Source: a virus
Strand: one strand, 5' to 3'
Virus record (IMG/VR): IMGVR_UViG_3300045988_179183
Length of the DNA stretch: 64,000 nt
Shown here piece by piece: positions 15,795 through 51,878 of the stretch (the first letter of the stretch is position 1; every line of letters begins with the position of its first letter). The notes beneath the pieces were generated by a model. The model ran no database searches. It saw only the letters and a program-made list of their open reading frames with translations, and had not been told where the DNA came from. The position numbers and the translations under genes were made by a program.

Positions 15795-15827
15795 TCAAAT
15801 AAAAAGTGAACCTTTTGAGGGTTCACT
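15795..15827 (-). terminator. Rho-independent terminator
   Basis: agtgaacc/ggttcact 8-bp stem (15805-15812 / 15820-15827), followed on the minus strand by TTTTTATTT. Confidence 0.6.
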
Positions 15828-43656: not shown

Positions 43657-45624
43657 TTACGTTAGTATCAACACCTCCGTGTTTTCATTCGCGTAAATAG
43701 CCATTTGTTGATTTCTCTCGTCCCAGTTTGTTCGACCGTTCATAAACAGGATCGTATCCTTACAGTTTTTCAAAATATTTTCGAACGATTCATATTCATT
43801 GGACCAGAAAACAACCGTTCGAAACTGGTAATTCTGCTCAAGCGTGATGATGGCGTAATCACCCTTTCGTCCAGTTTTTATTGCGATTTCATACACATAA
43901 CCCCCAGCCGTTAAATTATAACTTTTCGTTTCCAAGGGATCGTCCACTATTTCCGAAAAATCTTTGAAAGGATACTCCGAATCACCAACCATCTCCTTGA
44001 AATAATCCAAGTATAATTTTGAGTAATTGAAAAACGCCAAACCACACAATTTCTTCTGCCTCAAATTATGCCACCACTCTAGTTTCACCTTATCGGGATT
44101 CAACTCAAACACATCTTTTTCCTTATCGATTTTTACCTTATTAACGGTTCTGTATCGTTTTATAAGTTTTATCCTGTCTATAACGTTTGATATTGATTCT
44201 AGCTTATCGAAAGCACCACATGAAATCAAATTTTCTATAACACTTTTATTAACGGCACTTCCTTTCTGTGAATGACGGTCTAAAAATTCATCAAAACCAA
44301 AGTAGGGGCCGTTCTCGGATCTTTCCTTCATGATCTCCGCTTGTGCCTTCTCGCCGACCTGTTTCACTGATGAGATTGACCACACCAAACTTTTATCAGT
44401 GAAATCTGTCTTGATCTTATCCGTCGATTCATTAATATCAGGGGGGGTCACCTTGATATTTCCTATTTCATTTATCTCGTGTAGATAAACGGGGAAATCA
44501 TCATCATCAGCGTAGGAGAACGCAACGGACCAGAAAGCTAACGGATAATTTACTTTTAACCACTGACACGCGTATCCTGTGTTTGCATACGCGACCGCGT
44601 GGGATTTATTGAACTGATAATCAGCCATATTCTCAATTTCCTTCCATGTCTCTTCCGCGTATTTTTGATCAACACCGAAATTCTCGATATAATTTTTCAA
44701 AAATCTTTCCCTGAAGGGTTGAAGTTTCTCCACGTTCTTCTTACCAATCGCACGGCGTGCGCCATCCGCGTCAACAAGATTAAACCCTCCTAACACTTGG
44801 AACATTTTCATTGTCTGCTCCTGCCATATCATGATATACCGGCTACTTTGAAGTATTTCTCCCGCCCCTTTTCTAAATGATACTTCCCTCTCACCCTTTT
44901 TACGAAGGATATACTCGTTATGGAAATTTCCCTCCATAACCCCCGGTCGATATAACCCAATACAGTTTACAAGCTCTGTTATGTTATCGGGCTTTAACAT
45001 CTTACAATATCCGGTTAACCCTTTCGCGCCAAAATGAAATACATCACCATTCCACCCCCTTTGAAAATACGAGTAAACTTTCGGATCATCAAGAGGTAAT
45101 TCATAGAGGTTGATTTCTTCACCAGTATCATCTTTGATTAATTTCAATATATCACCGAACTTACTTAACTGCAAGATTCCCAGAATATCCTCTTTCAAAA
45201 AACCCGCGGTGTCAAGTTCACCACCCTCCCACTCACTGATCAACATATCACCCTGCCGGCGAATCGGATTCCAATGATACATATCCTTTTCATCCGGGTA
45301 AATCATCATGGCACATGCGTGAATCGATTTCGCCTTAGGTTGACCCTGTATCAAGCCGACCATCTCGATGATCTCCGGGTTTCTGTTAATGAAATTCGCG
45401 ACATCTTTTTTCTGACAGGCGATTCTGAATAAATCATCAAAATCCTTCACACCATCTATTTTAGAAGTAAATGAGTTTACCTCTGCGACGGGGACACCTT
45501 TCAACCTACATAGATCCTTGACGGCGGCCTTGACTTGAAGAGTCGTGTAGGTTCCCACGGAGCAAACTTGATCGGCACCGTAACGCTCCTCCATGTATCT
45601 TTTAACTTCCGGTCTTCTCGCCAT
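43657..45624 (-). CDS. dnaE: DNA polymerase III alpha (DnaE), C-terminal segment
   Basis: RRPEVKRYMEERYGADQVCSVGTYTTLQVKAAVKDLCR matches the DnaE palm/fingers. The frame is open upstream to 45693 and encodes ...RLRDIDTDFE (catalytic Asp motif) before the first ATG. Confidence 0.85.
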   Translation of the reverse strand: MARRPEVKRYMEERYGADQVCSVGTYTTLQVKAAVKDLCRLKGVPVAEVNSFTSKIDGVKDFDDLFRIACQKKDVANFINRNPEIIEMVGLIQGQPKAKSIHACAMMIYPDEKDMYHWNPIRRQGDMLISEWEGGELDTAGFLKEDILGILQLSKFGDILKLIKDDTGEEINLYELPLDDPKVYSYFQRGWNGDVFHFGAKGLTGYCKMLKPDNITELVNCIGLYRPGVMEGNFHNEYILRKKGEREVSFRKGAGEILQSSRYIMIWQEQTMKMFQVLGGFNLVDADGARRAIGKKNVEKLQPFRERFLKNYIENFGVDQKYAEETWKEIENMADYQFNKSHAVAYANTGYACQWLKVNYPLAFWSVAFSYADDDDFPVYLHEINEIGNIKVTPPDINESTDKIKTDFTDKSLVWSISSVKQVGEKAQAEIMKERSENGPYFGFDEFLDRHSQKGSAVNKSVIENLISCGAFDKLESISNVIDRIKLIKRYRTVNKVKIDKEKDVFELNPDKVKLEWWHNLRQKKLCGLAFFNYSKLYLDYFKEMVGDSEYPFKDFSEIVDDPLETKSYNLTAGGYVYEIAIKTGRKGDYAIITLEQNYQFRTVVFWSNEYESFENILKNCKDTILFMNGRTNWDERNQQMAIYANENTEVLILT

Positions 45625-45657
45625 CTCGAAATCAGTATCGATGTCCCTTAGTCTGGC

Positions 45658-46643
45658 AGCGAACCGTGCTTGATTCGCTGCCGCTTTTCTAATTTAATTG
45701 ATTTAACTATATATTCCATTTCAAATTTTGTTTTATCTGTTTTACAAATCTAGATTTTTCAATAAAAGACATCACCTTTCTCCTTATATCTGTTTCTCTT
45801 AAATACACCTCCGTATATAAAGGAACCCATTTCCTTTCGAATAGCTTGCCTTTCTGAAGAAAAGTAAGTAATGTATCATGATTACCACTCGGTGATAATG
45901 TTTTTTGTGCGTCATAAGCAGATAGAAATTTATGTACCTCTAAAGTATAAATATTTATCATCACAATCGGTTTCGCATTCGGATTAAGACTCCCTTTCGC
46001 AACACCCCGGTCTTTTCGGATTACTGAGATATGATCCTTCATTTCCTGGGACCATTTATTCCCATAATTACCATTTTTCCCACCCACTCGTCTCGGCGGC
46101 TTAATACCGCCAATTTTTAAATTTAGTGTTCGTCGATCTCTCACCCACTGATGATCAACTACACGTTTTTCCTGAATCAATGCATCATCTACGGTATTAA
46201 AATACAACAAATTCACTCTCTTAAACGCACCAACCCCGTACAATCTCACGCAATTACCTAATGGCATTGGTAAAGGGTCCTTGTAATCTTTTAAACCGGT
46301 GGAGTAATCCGTCTTGATTCCGCCACCAATATAAGAATCTTCCACTGTTTTTGATGAATGAACCCCAACATATACTTTTCCGTTTACCATACAGGTTGTT
46401 TTATACAAAATATTATAAAGGTTATTGTCACCCTTAAACGGATTCTTTTGTCCGTTCGAGCATTTTGCTAATATCTCCTGATCCGACACTAACGATTCTA
46501 TCTCCATCTTTTAAATCTTGAGCTTTTACATCTAATTTTTCTCCCGATCTAAAAATACACACTTTATCATCAAAATCCAACTCTATATCTAAATTATTAT
46601 CGAATGTGATTTTTACAACGTCCACTTCAACTTGTTGACCGAT
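45658..46643 (-). mobile_element. ~1-kb insertion splitting dnaE: GIY-YIG endonuclease cassette, possibly a group I intron (boundaries approximate)
   Basis: DnaE homology stops after FERFLNKGR (codon at 46646-46644) and resumes at ARLRDIDTDF (from ~45657). The endonuclease ORF fills most of the gap. Confidence 0.45.
45707..46507 (-). CDS. GIY-YIG homing endonuclease
   Basis: NILYKTTCMVNGKVYVGVH (GIY...YVG), later GGKNGNYGNKWSQEMKDHIS and NPNAKPIV repeats typical of I-TevI-like enzymes. Confidence 0.75.
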   Translation of the reverse strand: MEIESLVSDQEILAKCSNGQKNPFKGDNNLYNILYKTTCMVNGKVYVGVHSSKTVEDSYIGGGIKTDYSTGLKDYKDPLPMPLGNCVRLYGVGAFKRVNLLYFNTVDDALIQEKRVVDHQWVRDRRTLNLKIGGIKPPRRVGGKNGNYGNKWSQEMKDHISVIRKDRGVAKGSLNPNAKPIVMINIYTLEVHKFLSAYDAQKTLSPSGNHDTLLTFLQKGKLFERKWVPLYTEVYLRETDIRRKVMSFIEKSRFVKQIKQNLKWNI

Positions 46644-48056
46644 ACGACCTTTATTCAGAAAACGTTCGAATAGCAAATCGTAATCAAACGGGTTAATGTG
46701 CGTCAGACCCAATAAATAGGCGACGAGGGAGCCACAAGCTGATCCACGGCCGAACCCTACGAGTATACCTTGACGTTTACACCATTGGGTGATATCCCAA
46801 AGTATCAAGAAATAATCAACAACATCTCCGTATTTAATTACATCTATCTCAGTTTCAAGTCTATCAAGATACTTCTCTTGTTCATCAACATCACTTATCC
46901 CCATGCTATTAAACCCATCCGCGACCAAGGATATAAGCATATCAACTTTTGATCCATCATATTTCTTGAACTCCTCCTCGGTCATTTTATATTTAGGAAG
47001 ATGACGTTGTGATAGATCGACCTTGAAATTACTACACCTTTCAGCGATATCATTTGTGTTCTCGATCGCGAATCCGATGATATCAAGCATAATATCTTGG
47101 TCATTATCAGAGAATAACTCCCTAATCTCCATCAAATATTCTTCGTTACATTTGAAGTATTGATTTTTTGAAAAATCGTTACTTATACCCGCGGATGAAT
47201 TCAACGCTTTTTTCAGATAGAAATATTCTTGGTCCAAATAATACGCATCACAGATATTTGTGGGCAACATGGAACTTGAGAAATATTCCTGAAGATTCAA
47301 AAGATATACCCTATCTCTTTCATTTGAATCAAACTTAACTGAATCAAGTTGATAGTATGTGTTCATCAATTCTTTCGGCACATCTTTAAATTGCAGGCTC
47401 TTCGGGTCAATCACGATAATTAATCCCTCTCTCAATGACAGAAACTTTCCTTCATCGATCCTCACATTATTATCAACGTTAATTTCCTTGTTGATAGAAA
47501 GAAGGTTCATCCACCCTGTTTCATCCACGACGTAAACCTTCACATCGTACAGAAGATCTTTCTTTTGATTGAACACGGTAACGGTTTCACCGATCACCGG
47601 TTTCAAACCGTGTTTCTGGCATTCCAACTGAAATTTAAGCACACCCGCAAGTGTGTTTTTCTCACAGATACCCAAAATACTCACACCGAAAAAATTCGCT
47701 TTTCGACACCAATCTCCATAATCTCCGGTTCCGTTCAATAATTCAAACGGACCTCTCACTCCCAGAAATGATTCGGTCGGTAAATCACTATCAACCTTAC
47801 CGATATATTTCAAGAGTTTCAACTTCACTTTCGATTCATTACCCTTTCTCAAAGTGTAATACAGACGGCCGAACTTATAGATGTAATTATTCGCAGTGAT
47901 GGGTGTTCCTATGTAATTAAACCCTCGATCAAACAGAAGTCCGTCGACATTGGGCCCTGATAATTCATATGTATCACCATCCATTGTGATAATACCCAGG
48001 TCGGAAATATCATATATAAATCCATTGCGATCGAGATACGATAACAGTTCTTTCAT
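46434..48056 (-). CDS. dnaE: DNA polymerase III alpha (DnaE), N-terminal segment (PHP-like domain plus start of palm)
   Basis: GFGRGSACGSLVAYLLGLTHINPFDYDLLFERFLNKGR is the DnaE signature. The last 69 codons (46437-46643) have no DnaE counterpart. Confidence 0.85.
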   Translation of the reverse strand: MKELLSYLDRNGFIYDISDLGIITMDGDTYELSGPNVDGLLFDRGFNYIGTPITANNYIYKFGRLYYTLRKGNESKVKLKLLKYIGKVDSDLPTESFLGVRGPFELLNGTGDYGDWCRKANFFGVSILGICEKNTLAGVLKFQLECQKHGLKPVIGETVTVFNQKKDLLYDVKVYVVDETGWMNLLSINKEINVDNNVRIDEGKFLSLREGLIIVIDPKSLQFKDVPKELMNTYYQLDSVKFDSNERDRVYLLNLQEYFSSSMLPTNICDAYYLDQEYFYLKKALNSSAGISNDFSKNQYFKCNEEYLMEIRELFSDNDQDIMLDIIGFAIENTNDIAERCSNFKVDLSQRHLPKYKMTEEEFKKYDGSKVDMLISLVADGFNSMGISDVDEQEKYLDRLETEIDVIKYGDVVDYFLILWDITQWCKRQGILVGFGRGSACGSLVAYLLGLTHINPFDYDLLFERFLNKGRIGQQVEVDVVKITFDNNLDIELDFDDKVCIFRSGEKLDVKAQDLKDGDRIVSVGSGDISKMLERTKESV

Positions 48057-48776: not shown

Positions 48777-49569
48777 CGAATCCAGCAAAAAATCGGTACT
48801 TTTCAATATTAAATTTTATGTCATTCCATTGAGATTGTTGTACATCGATACCCACCATCTTATGAAGCATCACGGGAATTTTTTCTTCAAGTCCGCTATC
48901 CGTATATCTTACACCGTGTAAACCATGAATAACTGGATTAGATGTATCGATACTTCTGATAAAGTGATACTTATCCTCGTTATATTGGCAAACTTCTTGC
49001 GGTAATACTGTGCCCAGTAAATGCAACGGCTTTTCACAATCCATAACACCGTGATTGATGAGCTGGTCAATGAACATTTTTCTTCCTCTACAATATGCCT
49101 TCGATGTATTCTCATCAGCCGCGAGACTTAAATAAATGGGTAAGTTGAAAGGTAGCGCAACCATATCACAGCATTCGACCATGCATTTATAGCATTCGAC
49201 AAGTTCATTCCAACTTATCCCCTGAACAACACCGATTGAATAGCTGCACGATATTTTCTCCCACGTTCTCGCCATTCTCATCGTTTCTTTCGCATTTCTC
49301 AAAACATCGGGTAAAACGTAATAAGTTGGCTTCAGTGCCTTAATCCATGAACGAAATCTATTTGCGTCAAATGCCGACCCCAATTCGAACACTGAATTGT
49401 CAAGAATTACCTCGCGTCCCTTGTTAACAAGCGCATCCATGAAAAATTCGAAATAATCGCCACCTATATCGGGATCTTCAAACAAGTGAACAAGTGCGTA
49501 ATCATAATCAGTCATCGATTGAACCTTGTTCATAATCGATAACGGTGCTTCATGCGCTATCTTAATCAT
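48766..49569 (-). CDS. Uncharacterised protein, possibly a second TGT/DpdA-fold paralog
   Basis: REVILDNSVFELG vs DpdA DRIWLDSGGFTLF; GVVQGISWNE vs SIGGLAQGRE; PLHLLGT vs YVHLLGC. An 8-nt overlap with the queC stop suggests coupling. Confidence 0.4.
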   Translation of the reverse strand: MIKIAHEAPLSIMNKVQSMTDYDYALVHLFEDPDIGGDYFEFFMDALVNKGREVILDNSVFELGSAFDANRFRSWIKALKPTYYVLPDVLRNAKETMRMARTWEKISCSYSIGVVQGISWNELVECYKCMVECCDMVALPFNLPIYLSLAADENTSKAYCRGRKMFIDQLINHGVMDCEKPLHLLGTVLPQEVCQYNEDKYHFIRSIDTSNPVIHGLHGVRYTDSGLEEKIPVMLHKMVGIDVQQSQWNDIKFNIEKYRFFAGFVGK

Positions 49570-51292
49570 TGTGTTGATATTTTATGGGATCCGTCATTCC
49601 GTTTAATTCAAACGCTTCGAGCCGCTCGGTACAATTATGCACCAAATATCCCTCACAAATAAATGAACCAGCACTAGTCTTAATATCATATACATGTGCC
49701 TCCTTAACTGGTTCATCTATTTTATTTACCACCACTTGGTCTAAAAGCCTTATTGAATTATATGTGCCTAACTTTTCAAGCATCGACGCACGTTTTCCCG
49801 CACCGTACTTTAATGTAATTATGTACGGTCTTGTTACTCTCCAAGTTTGCATAAGGGTACCGCCCTCTTTAAAACCGGGCGTAACGGATTGCGACCTGTC
49901 ACACTTAATCCCCAACAATGATAATGCTTTATCGATTTGAATACACTTTTCTTTATTCACAATCACTGCTTGGCTTATAGAAAAACCGAATGATCCATTT
50001 GATTTATTATGACAAGCACACCCATCAGCTATCAACATTCCGTTTAAATACCCGCGCAAATACTCAGGGTGTTCATTAAATTTTGTCTTCTCAAGAAACA
50101 CAGGACCATAACCGCCACCAGCACGGTGCATGTTGGTATCCTCCCTGTAAGTGATTTTTACATCACATGGCTTGATATATTTATCATAAAGAGACCAAAA
50201 TTCTTCCAATACATCGAACTCCTTTTGAAATGTATGAACACCCCGTGTGTCAATGGATCCATCACCATCAGCAAATCCACGTAAATAACCCAGGGCGAAT
50301 TTTTCATCATCAACCTCTTTTCTTGTATTTGATACTGGCCAAAATTTCACCATATAAGTAGCATCCTTTCTCTTCATCTCCTCGTACTTTCTATATCTTG
50401 GCCTTAACTTCATATTTGAAGCATACACATAATGATCCTTCGTTAAAAGAAGACCCGCCATATCATATACCGGTTGAATACCATTATCAAACTTATCCAA
50501 TACCTTCGCCACACAAATTTTCTTCGTGTTTTCATCCACGGACCACACTTCGTCTCCAATACAAATATCCTTAATTTGCTTCCATGTATTATCACTCATC
50601 AGTACTTTCTGCGATTCTTCTATACACGACCCACACCTTCCACACGATCTTCCTTCTGGATCGGGATTATAGCACGTGTGAGTGTTACCCAGAACCAAAT
50701 TAATTTCATAATCATTGAACCCGAGGATCGTCATCGCACGTAACCCTTCGGCAAGTACACCGCCCTTATCCATGTGATTGAACGGAGCTTCGTATCCCAC
50801 TCTTTCACTACCCCAATTCGATACTTTAAACGCGTGCTCACAAGCGATTCGAGATTCCTCGGATGTATCAGGATAACAGCAATGATCGCCGCTATGTAGG
50901 CCTAAAAACACATCAACATTACTCTCCGTTTTATTCGCCCATGAAAGTGCCTTCCCATAAATGATAGCGGAAAAGATCACGTTTCTATTTTCAATAACCG
51001 TTGATTTCATATTTTCGGACGCGTAATGACCTTCCGGTATAGGTTCACCACCTACATGAAGGGACGAATTACTGTCACTGAAACAATCCCTCAGATCGAT
51101 AATCTGGTGTGATAACTTAAACCTCTTACCTTGCAAGAACTCAATATTTCTTTTCACCTTCTCCAATTCAACCTGATGCTTCTGACCGTATTGAAAAGAA
51201 TAAGCCTTAACTTCGTAATCATGAGCAAGTAAATACATGAGCAAGCACGTACTATCCAATCCGCCCGATAAACTTAAAATCGCCTTTTTCAT
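49562..51292 (-). CDS. queC: 7-cyano-7-deazaguanine (preQ0) synthase QueC, interrupted by one intein
   Basis: MKKAILSLSGGLDST (PP-loop), Zn-site Cys cluster SCGRCGS[intein]CTERLEAF. Start trimmed from 51349 to ATG 51292, 1 nt after the upstream stop. Confidence 0.85.
   Translation of the reverse strand: MKKAILSLSGGLDSTCLLMYLLAHDYEVKAYSFQYGQKHQVELEKVKRNIEFLQGKRFKLSHQIIDLRDCFSDSNSSLHVGGEPIPEGHYASENMKSTVIENRNVIFSAIIYGKALSWANKTESNVDVFLGLHSGDHCCYPDTSEESRIACEHAFKVSNWGSERVGYEAPFNHMDKGGVLAEGLRAMTILGFNDYEINLVLGNTHTCYNPDPEGRSCGRCGSCIEESQKVLMSDNTWKQIKDICIGDEVWSVDENTKKICVAKVLDKFDNGIQPVYDMAGLLLTKDHYVYASNMKLRPRYRKYEEMKRKDATYMVKFWPVSNTRKEVDDEKFALGYLRGFADGDGSIDTRGVHTFQKEFDVLEEFWSLYDKYIKPCDVKITYREDTNMHRAGGGYGPVFLEKTKFNEHPEYLRGYLNGMLIADGCACHNKSNGSFGFSISQAVIVNKEKCIQIDKALSLLGIKCDRSQSVTPGFKEGGTLMQTWRVTRPYIITLKYGAGKRASMLEKLGTYNSIRLLDQVVVNKIDEPVKEAHVYDIKTSAGSFICEGYLVHNCTERLEAFELNGMTDPIKYQHND
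49634..50626 (-). mobile_element. Intein (331 aa) with LAGLIDADG endonuclease, in QueC
   Basis: CIEESQKVLMSDNTWKQIKDICIGDEVWSV (block A), LLLTKDHYV (block B), LGYLRGFADGDGS and LRGYLNGMLIADGCA, ends EGYLVHN|C. Confidence 0.8.
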
Positions 51293-51293
51293 T

Positions 51294-51878
51294 TTATAAT
51301 CTGTAATTAAATTCCATAATATCCAATACCTGGGAAACTCTTTCGTCAATACTTCCGCTCACATAGTGTATCCCTCGTGGTGCGAAGTCTTGTAACATAC
51401 GCGCGTTTTTCTCAAATAAACGATCGATTTCCTTTTGAAATACTTCATCAGTTGACCGAACTCCGTCGTCCACGATTTTAAACTCCGGCCTCAGTACAAT
51501 GTGATGGCTGTAAAGGGGCTCTATATGAAATAGAAGTTGGGTGACCGTGTCAACCATTTCATCCCAGAGAGGCCTATCCTCGCTCGATGACCTGTCCCGG
51601 TTATACTCCGTGTAGCATAGAACATCTAATAAACATCTATCGGAAATAATATGATCATGCGCTGACATCGCTGACTCGATAATTTCTTTCACATACGAAG
51701 TTGCGATCCAAAGTTGATCATAAATACCCGCTTCCTTATTAATCTTTATGCCGCGATCATTACCTTTCCTTGAAGGAGATCCCATAAAGAGAGATCCCTT
51801 CAAACACTCCTCCTTTTTCAACGCCTCAATTAACGTTGTCTTACCTGTGCATTGAGCACCTGAAATTGATATAATCAT
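51294..51878 (-). CDS. P-loop nucleoside/nucleotide kinase-like protein
   Basis: MIISISGAQCTGKTTLIEAL (Walker A at the extreme N-terminus), later ISDRCLLD (kinase-like DR motif). Confidence 0.5.
   Translation of the reverse strand: MIISISGAQCTGKTTLIEALKKEECLKGSLFMGSPSRKGNDRGIKINKEAGIYDQLWIATSYVKEIIESAMSAHDHIISDRCLLDVLCYTEYNRDRSSSEDRPLWDEMVDTVTQLLFHIEPLYSHHIVLRPEFKIVDDGVRSTDEVFQKEIDRLFEKNARMLQDFAPRGIHYVSGSIDERVSQVLDIMEFNYRL

Follow-up and report, generated by a model that had tools for sequence, protein, structure and literature searches.

The described system closest to the one considered here is the MobA/gene 60 cassette of bacteriophage T4, in which a bypass insert protects the DNA of the element itself from nicking by MobA (10.1101/2022.08.31.505936). 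The T4 element is further characterized by C- and N-terminal extensions, by a swappable endonuclease family and by take-off at the Asp/Gly of a metal-binding motif; during its decay, the endonuclease is lost first and the bypass second, while the split and the extensions are kept (10.1101/2022.08.31.505936). A rare AGG codon can replace the stop after the take-off codon in the T4 element, and the 5' stem-loop of gene 60, located 9 nt from take-off, is a proposed "initiating driver". The gene 60 system has also been treated in a preprint by Wills et al. (2024; 10.1101/2024.12.09.627546). According to Manning and Atkins, the bypass cassette "remains unique" and occurs in topoisomerase genes only (10.1101/2022.08.31.505936). 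Full-text searches of the literature returned bypassing in three settings, namely gene 60 with its Topo2L homologs, one Streptomyces phage candidate and the byps of yeast mitochondria, and none for DnaE. Here, the dnaE locus of IMG/VR virus record IMGVR_UViG_3300045988_179183 is described, of which a stretch of 64,000 nt (the window) was analyzed. The DnaE-type replicative polymerase of this phage is a genes-in-pieces enzyme made by a homing-endonuclease cassette, and comparison with related sequences suggests that its second piece is probably completed by a programmed short translational hop over a gap that contains a stop codon.

All features of the locus lie on the minus strand of the window; those needed below are the following open reading frames (ORFs) and elements.

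48056..46434, minus: DnaE piece 1 ORF, 540 aa
46644..48056, minus: polymerase-homologous part of piece 1, PHP domain and start of the palm, to FERFLNKGR (from the ORF and Pfam matches to PHP and to DNA_pol3_alpha 6-99)
46434..46643, minus: C-terminal extension of piece 1 (the tail), 69 codons and a TAA stop, IGQQVEVDVVKITFDNN...GDRIVSV... (from homologous tails)
45707..46507, minus: free-standing homing endonuclease gene, GIY-YIG-like, 266 aa (phrog_314)
45651..45719, minus: start of piece 2 with its N-terminal extension (the leader), encoding MEYIVKSIKLEKRQRIKHGSLPD, from ATG 45719 to the take-off codon GAC 45653-45651
45655..45682, minus: 5' hairpin with arms GGCAGCGAA/TTCGCTGCC (9 perfect pairs, predicted fold, covariation)
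45646..45650, minus: coding gap TAAGG, with TAA 45650-45648 directly after the take-off codon
45643..45645, minus: candidate landing codon GAC, the same as the take-off codon (from the sequence)
43657..45642, minus: body of piece 2, from ATC GAT ACT GAT TTC (IDTDF, catalytic aspartates) to the stop (Pfam, purifying selection)

A preliminary description of this DNA had an N-terminal ORF matching DnaE up to FERFLNKGR (ending at 46644) with 69 codons beyond it, and an endonuclease ORF at 45707-46507; both sets of coordinates were confirmed. The 69 codons, regarded at that time as unrelated to the polymerase, instead form a conserved tail present in every split relative, with the common pattern ..G....(D/E)...(I/V).(I/L)..(E/D)(D/N)G...E(L/F)......A.(D/E)L..GD.(I/L). 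The endonuclease ORF overlaps the tail over 74 nt and, with its 3' end, the ATG of the leader. The break lies inside the DNA_pol3_alpha domain of Pfam, piece 1 covering profile positions 6-99 and the part with DIDTDF positions 103-260; finger and HHH_6 domains were also recognized in the body of piece 2. An identical arrangement was found in approximately 20 independent contigs, which excludes an assembly artefact.

The first ATG of the 655-aa C-terminal ORF (45624) is located downstream of DIDTDF, and its frame is open upstream to a TAA at 45696-94, encoding ...ARLRDIDTDFEM without any ATG, GTG, or TTG, as had been described before. The stretch upstream of DIDTDF, ...ARLRDIDTDF, was previously read as polymerase sequence, but this open frame is accidental, and its junction with KGR does not match the GR-xxx-SLPD-IDTDF of uninterrupted relatives. 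Alignment with the relatives L017, L018, and L019 (contigs are designated by such numbers below) places the true start of piece 2 in another frame, at ATG 45719, overlapping the stop codon of the endonuclease gene. The leader reads ATG GAA TAT ATA GTT AAA TCA ATT AAA TTA GAA AAG CGG CAG CGA ATC AAG CAC GGT TCG CTG CCA GAC TAA, that is, MEYIVKSIKLEKRQRIKHGSLPD followed by a stop, and it restores the SLPD that uninterrupted genes have before IDTDF. The frame of the polymerase is picked up again 8 nt beyond the first GAC (GAC TAA GG GAC ATC GAT ACT GAT TTC), so that the gap is flanked by matched take-off and landing codons, and joining at the two GAC codons restores the conserved protein, ...GSLPDIDTDFEMARR. 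The joined product scores 103.7 bits against DNA_pol3_alpha and starts at profile position 99, abutting the end of piece 1 at 99, while lower scores were obtained for the ARLRDIDTDF frame (97.9 bits) and for the product starting at ATG 45624 (80.9 bits). In gap-bearing genomes, DTDF and the 240 codons downstream of it are under purifying selection, with synonymous to nonsynonymous ratios of 22:1 in the lineage of the window and of 54:5 and 67:4 in the L017 group; this strong selection indicates that the protein of piece 2 is made and used. The earlier contention that an active polymerase needs RNA splicing or unusual initiation thus stands in so far as a non-standard step is required for the catalytic aspartates to be included; as the nature of that step, a hop over the 5-nt gap is favored over splicing and unusual initiation.

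The locus gave no match among GenBank phages in a megablast search. The closest sequences in protein searches were from Bacteroidota phages (of Cellulophaga, Tenacibaculum, Chryseobacterium, and Bacteroides) and from human faecal contigs. Scans of IMG/VR and metagenomes provided the approximately 20 contigs, 97-100% identical to the window, and many more distant relatives; some 430 relatives were seen. The majority of relatives are uninterrupted and read FERFLN(K/E/A)GR-xxx-SLPD(I/L)D(T/C/V)D(F/Y), with the split form spread patchily among them, as is expected of a mobile insertion. Relatives without an endonuclease gene carry the same split as two adjacent ORFs, namely Cellulophaga phage phi13:1, Tenacibaculum phage Larrie, and L018. 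In phi13:1 and Larrie, DnaE is annotated as two adjacent genes: piece 1 ends with FERFLNSGR plus a 53-aa tail and piece 2 begins 1-2 nt later, MKIINIEQNTAPKLVNGTLPDIDTDF. These endonuclease-free split relatives have the same tail, and their leader runs from the ATG through ...G(S/T)LPD(I/L)DTDF in a single frame. Two collinear ORFs with a stop and a start of their own, an endonuclease gene between them, and the existence of both endonuclease-free and uninterrupted relatives are what is found in genes-in-pieces systems. Of the two options raised in the preliminary description, intron or two-piece polymerase, the latter has proved right.

Approximately 14 related alleles are gapped at the same point, 8 of which have matched flanking codons, the rest being near-matched or unmatched. 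Next to GAC TAAGG GAC of the window, the alleles are as follows.

Short gap, CTC TGAGAC CTC: L017, L019
Short gap, CTC TGAG CTC: L022, L193, L198
Short gap, ATC TAAG ATC: L040, L197
Short gap, ATC TAAG ATT: L199
Short gap, near-match, ATT TGAGTGA GTC: L054
Long gap, ATC TAG and 16 nt, then ATT (19 nt): L098, L257
Long gap, GAT and 37 nt, then GAT or GAC: L100-102, L002, L157, L264
Long gap, GAG TAG and 31 nt, then GAA: L141, L151
Long gap, GAT AGG and 31 nt, then GAA: L043-45
Long gap, GAT and 36 nt, then GAA: L228
Long gap, GAT TAA and 36-38 nt, then TAC: L055 group, L056
1-nt insertion, CCC TGA C: L106

After the take-off codon, the window has TAA, 9 of the alleles have one of the stops TGA, TAA, and TAG, and L043 has AGG, with the L100 family (CAA) and L228 (GTG) as exceptions. 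The gaps measure 4-7 nt or 19-41 nt, representing all three frame classes, and L017 and L022, as well as L055 and L056, differ by 2 nt. The mechanism therefore is independent of frame, by which frameshifting and readthrough fail as a common explanation. A simple +1 or -1 frameshift or a readthrough event was rejected, as each allele would need a different event. SLPD is always encoded in the leader frame, using the synonymous codons TCG/TCC/TCT, CTG/CTC/CTT/TTG, CCN, and GAY; for DTDF, likewise kept through synonymous codons, the frame is invariably the downstream one. Since both peptides are kept in this way, each in its own frame, the switch between frames occurs inside the gap. In L017/L019, L054, and L098, a stop codon in the downstream frame immediately precedes the resume codon, and L017/19/22 and L054 lack an AUG-like codon before it; in those alleles, entry from upstream and initiation are excluded. 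A frameshift further upstream was likewise dismissed, since the leader frame retains SLPD and since the C-terminal frame of several alleles is closed by a stop immediately upstream of the resume codon. Neither a suppressor tRNA nor a reassigned stop codon can explain the gaps, in which sense codons are used as well as TAA, TGA, and TAG and by which the frame is changed. No tRNA gene was found in the window. A hop between matched codons over a stop explains all of the short-gap alleles, including that of the window, and always restores the consensus peptide.

L106 (IMGVR_UViG_3300036663_000080, around 1790-1810), a split relative of the marine type, contains one extra C, in CTT CCC TGA CAT CGA. 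It could be a member of the gap series with a gap of 1 nt, or the extra base could be a sequencing error in a homopolymer; CCC before a stop is what we take to be a classic site of +1 shifting. In the sister L107, there is no interruption here.

Directly upstream of the gap, a stem-loop was predicted, as in the known bypass system. In the window, the fold comprises 11 bp (45682-45672 with 45665-45655) and ends 1 nt before the take-off codon. Its 3' arm is formed by the codons for (G)SLP(D), and the 5' arm lies 10-16 nt upstream. The arms in the window and in relatives are:

Window: GGCAGCGAA / TTCGCTGCC
L017: ATCCGGCAAG / CTTGCCGGAT
L100: GGAGCGAT / ATCGCTCC
L043: GGCAGAGA / TCTCTGCC
L098: GTCGGGAAG / CTTCCCGAC
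L228: GGCGTGGA / TCCATGCC

In an alignment of 12 alleles, 84.6% of the cells are paired, compared with 30-46% when the partners are slid, and 6 pairs have changed on both sides; the covariation score was reached by none of 500 shuffles. Contiguous pairing extends over 8-13 bp in every allele gapped by 4-41 nt, with folding energies of -16 to -27 kcal/mol, whereas in the gapless split alleles (L018, L192, phi13:1, Larrie, L103, L104, L107, and L108) it does not exceed 3 bp and the energies are -2 to -10 kcal/mol. As the hairpin is restricted to gapped alleles, and is missing from L018 despite the fact that L018 has the same leader peptide as L017, it is functionally tied to the gap. An intrinsic terminator was considered for this hairpin and was not called; a T-run is absent. 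A second stem-loop, located within the gap and rich in GC, was seen in the long-gap relatives L098 and L141 (in both of which it starts at the G of TAG), L043, L055, L100, and L228.

Taken together, these data are best accommodated by a two-piece polymerase that results from a homing-endonuclease cassette and that probably makes use of a programmed hop. Piece 1 ends in the conserved tail of around 70 aa and piece 2 opens at ATG 45719 with a 19-aa leader; by analogy with T4 gp39/gp60 and Aeh1 NrdA, tail and leader presumably keep the two pieces associated. The ribosome would pause with peptidyl-tRNA-Asp on GAC and the TAA stop in the A site. The GC-rich hairpin, refolding as it leaves the ribosome, would then pull the mRNA forward, upon which peptidyl-tRNA-Asp could re-pair 8 nt downstream. 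Decoding would be resumed at ATC GAT ACT GAT, giving ...GSLPD-IDTDFEMARR..., exactly as in uninterrupted relatives, with HGSLPDIDTDFEMAR as the predicted junction peptide. The gap itself would confer immunity to the endonuclease of the cassette, as has been proposed for T4 MobA/gene 60.

The 266-aa endonuclease ORF matches phrog_314, "homing endonuclease", with an E-value of 6e-18. Its match to TIGR01453 ("group I intron endonuclease") is below the cut-off (E=8e-4), the homolog of L098 reaching 1e-10. No Pfam match was obtained for the ORF even at E<=10, and comparison with PDB sequences gave noise only; motifs resembling those of GIY-YIG enzymes (ILY...KVYVG...YIGGG) are visible by eye. Homologous ORFs occupy the same position in 8 other lineages (L019, L098, L043, L141, L199, L209, L228, and L002). 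A gene of the HNH/endonuclease VII type is present at this position in L054 (2646-3431; phrog_1035, 1.8e-27), from which it appears that endonuclease families are swapped within the same cassette. The gap is present in 11 out of 11 endonuclease-bearing alleles, and the gapless alleles are all without the endonuclease; for the first 8 endonuclease-bearing lineages counted, the association has a Fisher p of approximately 0.006, uncorrected for relatedness. Some endonuclease-free alleles have kept the gap. By analogy with T4, the gap probably shields the phage DNA from its own endonuclease without altering the invariant catalytic peptide.

The likeness to T4 genes 39 and 60 extends to many traits: a free-standing homing endonuclease has split an essential enzyme of replication, both pieces carry conserved extensions, and the gap is located a few codons into piece 2, where an Asp of a metal-binding motif is encoded. 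Also shared with gene 60 are the upstream stem-loop, the match between take-off and landing codons, and the stop or rare codon that follows take-off, AGG taking the position of the stop in L043. The endonuclease families are interchangeable (GIY-YIG-like here and HNH in L054), and the same decay series can be recognized. Nevertheless, the invaded protein is DnaE, whereas the T4 cassette is inserted in the Toprim domain of Topo2L, and the two are without sequence homology. The gap amounts to 5 nt (4-41 nt in relatives) instead of 50, the leader counts 23 codons instead of 46, and, unlike gene 60, the allele of the window is devoid of a stem-loop within the gap. The Lys/Arg-rich leader is not homologous to the nascent-peptide signal of gp60. 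A strong and covarying 5' hairpin adjoins the take-off codon here; that of T4 is 9 nt away and poorly conserved. The hosts are probably Bacteroidota, without Shine-Dalgarno pairing. The putative hop in DnaE is analogous to, not homologous with, the T4 gene 60/MobA element.

Four other systems share part of these traits. In short-distance "stop hopping" of E. coli, 9 nt specify one amino acid. As proposed here for DnaE, peptidyl-tRNA leaves the codon before a stop and re-pairs with a matched codon a few nucleotides downstream; the E. coli events are low-level and unprogrammed or synthetic, whereas the present case is natural, conserved across lineages, located in an essential gene, and provided with a dedicated hairpin. 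In the nrdA gene of phage Aeh1, split by mobE, an endonuclease likewise resides within the ORF, the products are tailed, and their assembly is presumed to be non-covalent; it differs in having no coding gap or need for recoding in the second piece. The mitochondrial byps of Magnusiomyces capitatus are short inserts of 27-55 nt that form GC-rich hairpins and are bypassed from one codon to a roughly matched one, with no use of Shine-Dalgarno pairing, a resemblance that holds for the long-gap relatives L043, L055, L100, L141, and L228. They differ in that they belong to a eukaryotic organelle, have many insertion sites and show no tie to homing endonucleases or to a split gene. Group I introns with a GIY-YIG enzyme (I-TevI/td type) also interrupt conserved catalytic regions of genes in nucleotide metabolism; here, the intron core is not detectable, the flanks are translated and conserved as protein, and each piece has its own stop or start.

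Several observations weigh against the proposed hop. Within the 5-nt gap of the window, there is no room for a stem-loop and the fold shows none. At take-off, the 3' arm of the 5' hairpin is inside the ribosome, so that its role as a driver is a conjecture. Unstimulated stop-hopping in E. coli is reported to be very inefficient. The match between the flanking codons could have been left behind by the insertion event, as a small duplication, instead of reflecting a requirement for re-pairing of the tRNA. Amid almost purely synonymous divergence, the landing codon is mismatched in L008 and L038 (GGC) and in L194 (CCC). Under a hop, these changes are silent in the protein, which fits, but they would weaken re-pairing, and they may be sequencing errors; any other way of decoding would read them as D to G or L to P at an invariant residue. 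Several long-gap alleles fit a hop imperfectly: L055 and L056 have TAC as the landing codon, L043 and L228 go from GAT to GAA, and an extra Glu would result from a hop in L141. Re-initiation is a possibility in L055 and L056, given a TTG or ATG located two codons ahead of DTD. Finally, the composite motif of hairpin, codon, stop, and same codon is weak evidence by itself, such that the case rests on comparison: in a loose version it occurs 28 times in the window against approximately 18 in shuffles, and in a strict version 3 times against 0.29 per shuffle, which is not rare alone. The two other strict sites, at approximately 57336 and approximately 15800 (minus strand; codons AAA and ATT), are probably chance matches; the one at 15800 resembles a terminator hairpin with a T-run.

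An alternative that we deem unlikely, albeit worth weighing, is a polymerase in three pieces. The leader would terminate at the TAA, yielding a free 23-aa peptide, and translation would re-initiate at the near-cognate ATC 45642-40 to give fMet-DTDFEMARR. That ATC is indeed located 5 nt past the stop, a TTG or ATG is found two codons before DTD and downstream of a GGAGG-containing hairpin in L055/L209 and L056/L213, and the C-terminal frame of the L100 family is open from a TTG. However, nothing resembling a start codon separates the stop from DTD in L017/L019/L022/L193 (CTC) and L054 (GTC), and the substitutions in the L100 family preserve the amino acids of the leader frame while changing those read from the TTG. 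In all alleles, SLPD varies through synonymous changes only, as would follow from its being continuous with IDTDF, and the absence of Shine-Dalgarno usage at ORFs in the window makes a restart driven by such a sequence unlikely.

Removal or neutralization of the 5 nt in the RNA before translation, be it by editing, a micro-intron, or hairpin-guided processing, is improbable. A conserved hairpin adjoining the gap and the second GC-rich hairpin inside the gap of long-gap relatives would suit such a process, but no Rfam family matches, and a stop or rare codon after take-off together with matched codons are signatures of translation. To our knowledge, no bacterial or phage mechanism removes 4-41 nt precisely.

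Little credence, too, can be given to the idea that the gap is a disabling lesion, such that piece 2 either starts at ATG 45624 and lacks the catalytic aspartates or is not made, while another polymerase replicates the phage. ATG 45624 is the first canonical start in the C-terminal frame and the matched codons could be an insertion footprint, but IDTDF and the codons after it are kept by purifying selection in several gapped lineages, the same allele occurs in approximately 20 contigs from different samples, and each of some 14 different gap alleles has maintained its hairpin.

A group I intron of approximately 986 nt carrying the endonuclease gene, the splicing of which would join KGR to ARLRDIDTDF, was the possibility raised first for this locus and is now hardly tenable. 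Its attraction lay in a GIY-YIG-type endonuclease inside a conserved gene and in the weak match to TIGR01453. The scan with the group I intron covariance model, which had been put forward as a check, gave no match to Intron_gpI in the whole window at the Rfam gathering threshold, in 45300-47000 at E<=10, or in the insert of approximately 226 nt of the endonuclease-free relative L018; nor did these Rfam scans return any other relevant RNA family. Tail and leader, both situated in the supposed intron, are conserved as protein under purifying selection, judging from their codons. In the tail, 16-21 synonymous differences were counted against 5-6 nonsynonymous ones between the L017/18/19/22 contigs. 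The leaders of L017 and L018 differ by 7 synonymous and 0 nonsynonymous changes in their own frame, and by 0:7 in the other two frames. The junction would read GR-ARLR-D and not the GR-xxx-SLP-D of relatives, and the relatives annotated with two genes have normal stop and ATG signals. In view of the lack of an Rfam match and of the protein-level selection on tail and leader, the intron reading is rejected.

Equally remote is a split intein formed by tail and leader and splicing the two pieces into one chain, which draws on a weak likeness of the tail profile to the block-B region of inteins and on a real intein in the QueC protein of the same window, but which conflicts with tails that begin with I, L, M, A, or V and not with Cys/Ser, with leaders that end in Gly or Val before S/T-LPD and not in Asn, and with a combined length of approximately 60-90 aa that is too short for a Hint domain, and which would in any case leave the coding gap unexplained. 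The resemblance of the tail to the Hint fold, covering the block-B region of Hint/intein domains (tail 46437-46643), is weak and not significant: E=0.056 for Pfam Intein_splicing and E=0.007-0.04 for PDB entries 5o9j, 2lcj, and 6riz. An hhalign comparison of the tail with a real DnaE mini-intein was insignificant (probability 2.5%). The leaders (MKIEKIKEIEVERF..., window 45663-45719) resemble what we take to be the first strand of C-inteins. The two extensions may be remnants of a degenerate split intein that now serve for association only.

Phage programmed bypassing has so far been known from one gene family only. On balance, the DnaE-splitting cassette seems somewhat more apt to be a second family of programmed bypass elements, in gut and marine Bacteroidota phages and independent of T4 gene 60, than to be something else. 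Such a family would have gaps of 4-41 nt (perhaps 1 nt) before the DxD codons and, in the window, a hop of 8 nt that would be driven mainly by the hairpin, in hosts that do not use Shine-Dalgarno pairing; the gap would serve self-immunity. If the family is indeed independent, a homing endonuclease combined with a translated-over gap would be a recurring solution to the invasion of invariant catalytic motifs. If the proposed hop is real, the locus would provide a minimal 11-nt system for the dissection of take-off and landing, and would allow testing of mRNA refolding behind the ribosome as a forward driver, in ribosomes that ignore Shine-Dalgarno signals. Gene callers begin piece 2 at ATG 45624 and thereby annotate a catalytically dead protein; the same mis-annotation probably occurs in many phage genomes.

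With regard to the host, several contigs nearly identical to the window (L187-L191 and L253) are labelled human gut metagenome and are around 100-102 kb long. In a scan of bacterial genomes, relatives were found in metagenome-assembled genomes of Bacteroidota only, except for one remote match of 26%. Shine-Dalgarno sequences are not enriched at the ORFs of the window (5 of 51 against a background of 16%), the sequence before the starts being A/T-rich. Both observations fit a Bacteroidota host, and the data suggest a gut Bacteroidota phage of approximately 101 kb.

The QueC (7-cyano-7-deazaguanine synthase) ORF of the window, located at 49562-51349 on the minus strand and encoding 595 aa, contains an inserted intein with a LAGLIDADG endonuclease domain. 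Pfam matches were obtained to QueC (4.6e-36), to LAGLIDADG_3 (above the cut-off), and to Intein_splicing (5e-5). Together with the dnaE cassette, this intein brings the kinds of selfish element hosted by the phage to at least two.

In the marine contigs L106, L107, and L108, the DnaE pieces are no longer adjacent, unrelated genes being present between them or upstream of piece 2; by eye, these include a PAPS-reductase-like ORF in L108 and ThyX-, deoxyribosyltransferase-, and HD-like ORFs in L106 and L107. Piece 2 has a length of 678 aa in the window, 833 aa in L017, and 1245 aa in L022, with extra insertions in some relatives. L002 carries a mini-intein in DnaE piece 2 (approximately 2050-2500) at an FNK|C...CN|SH site, which presumably is that of the cyanobacterial DnaE split intein.

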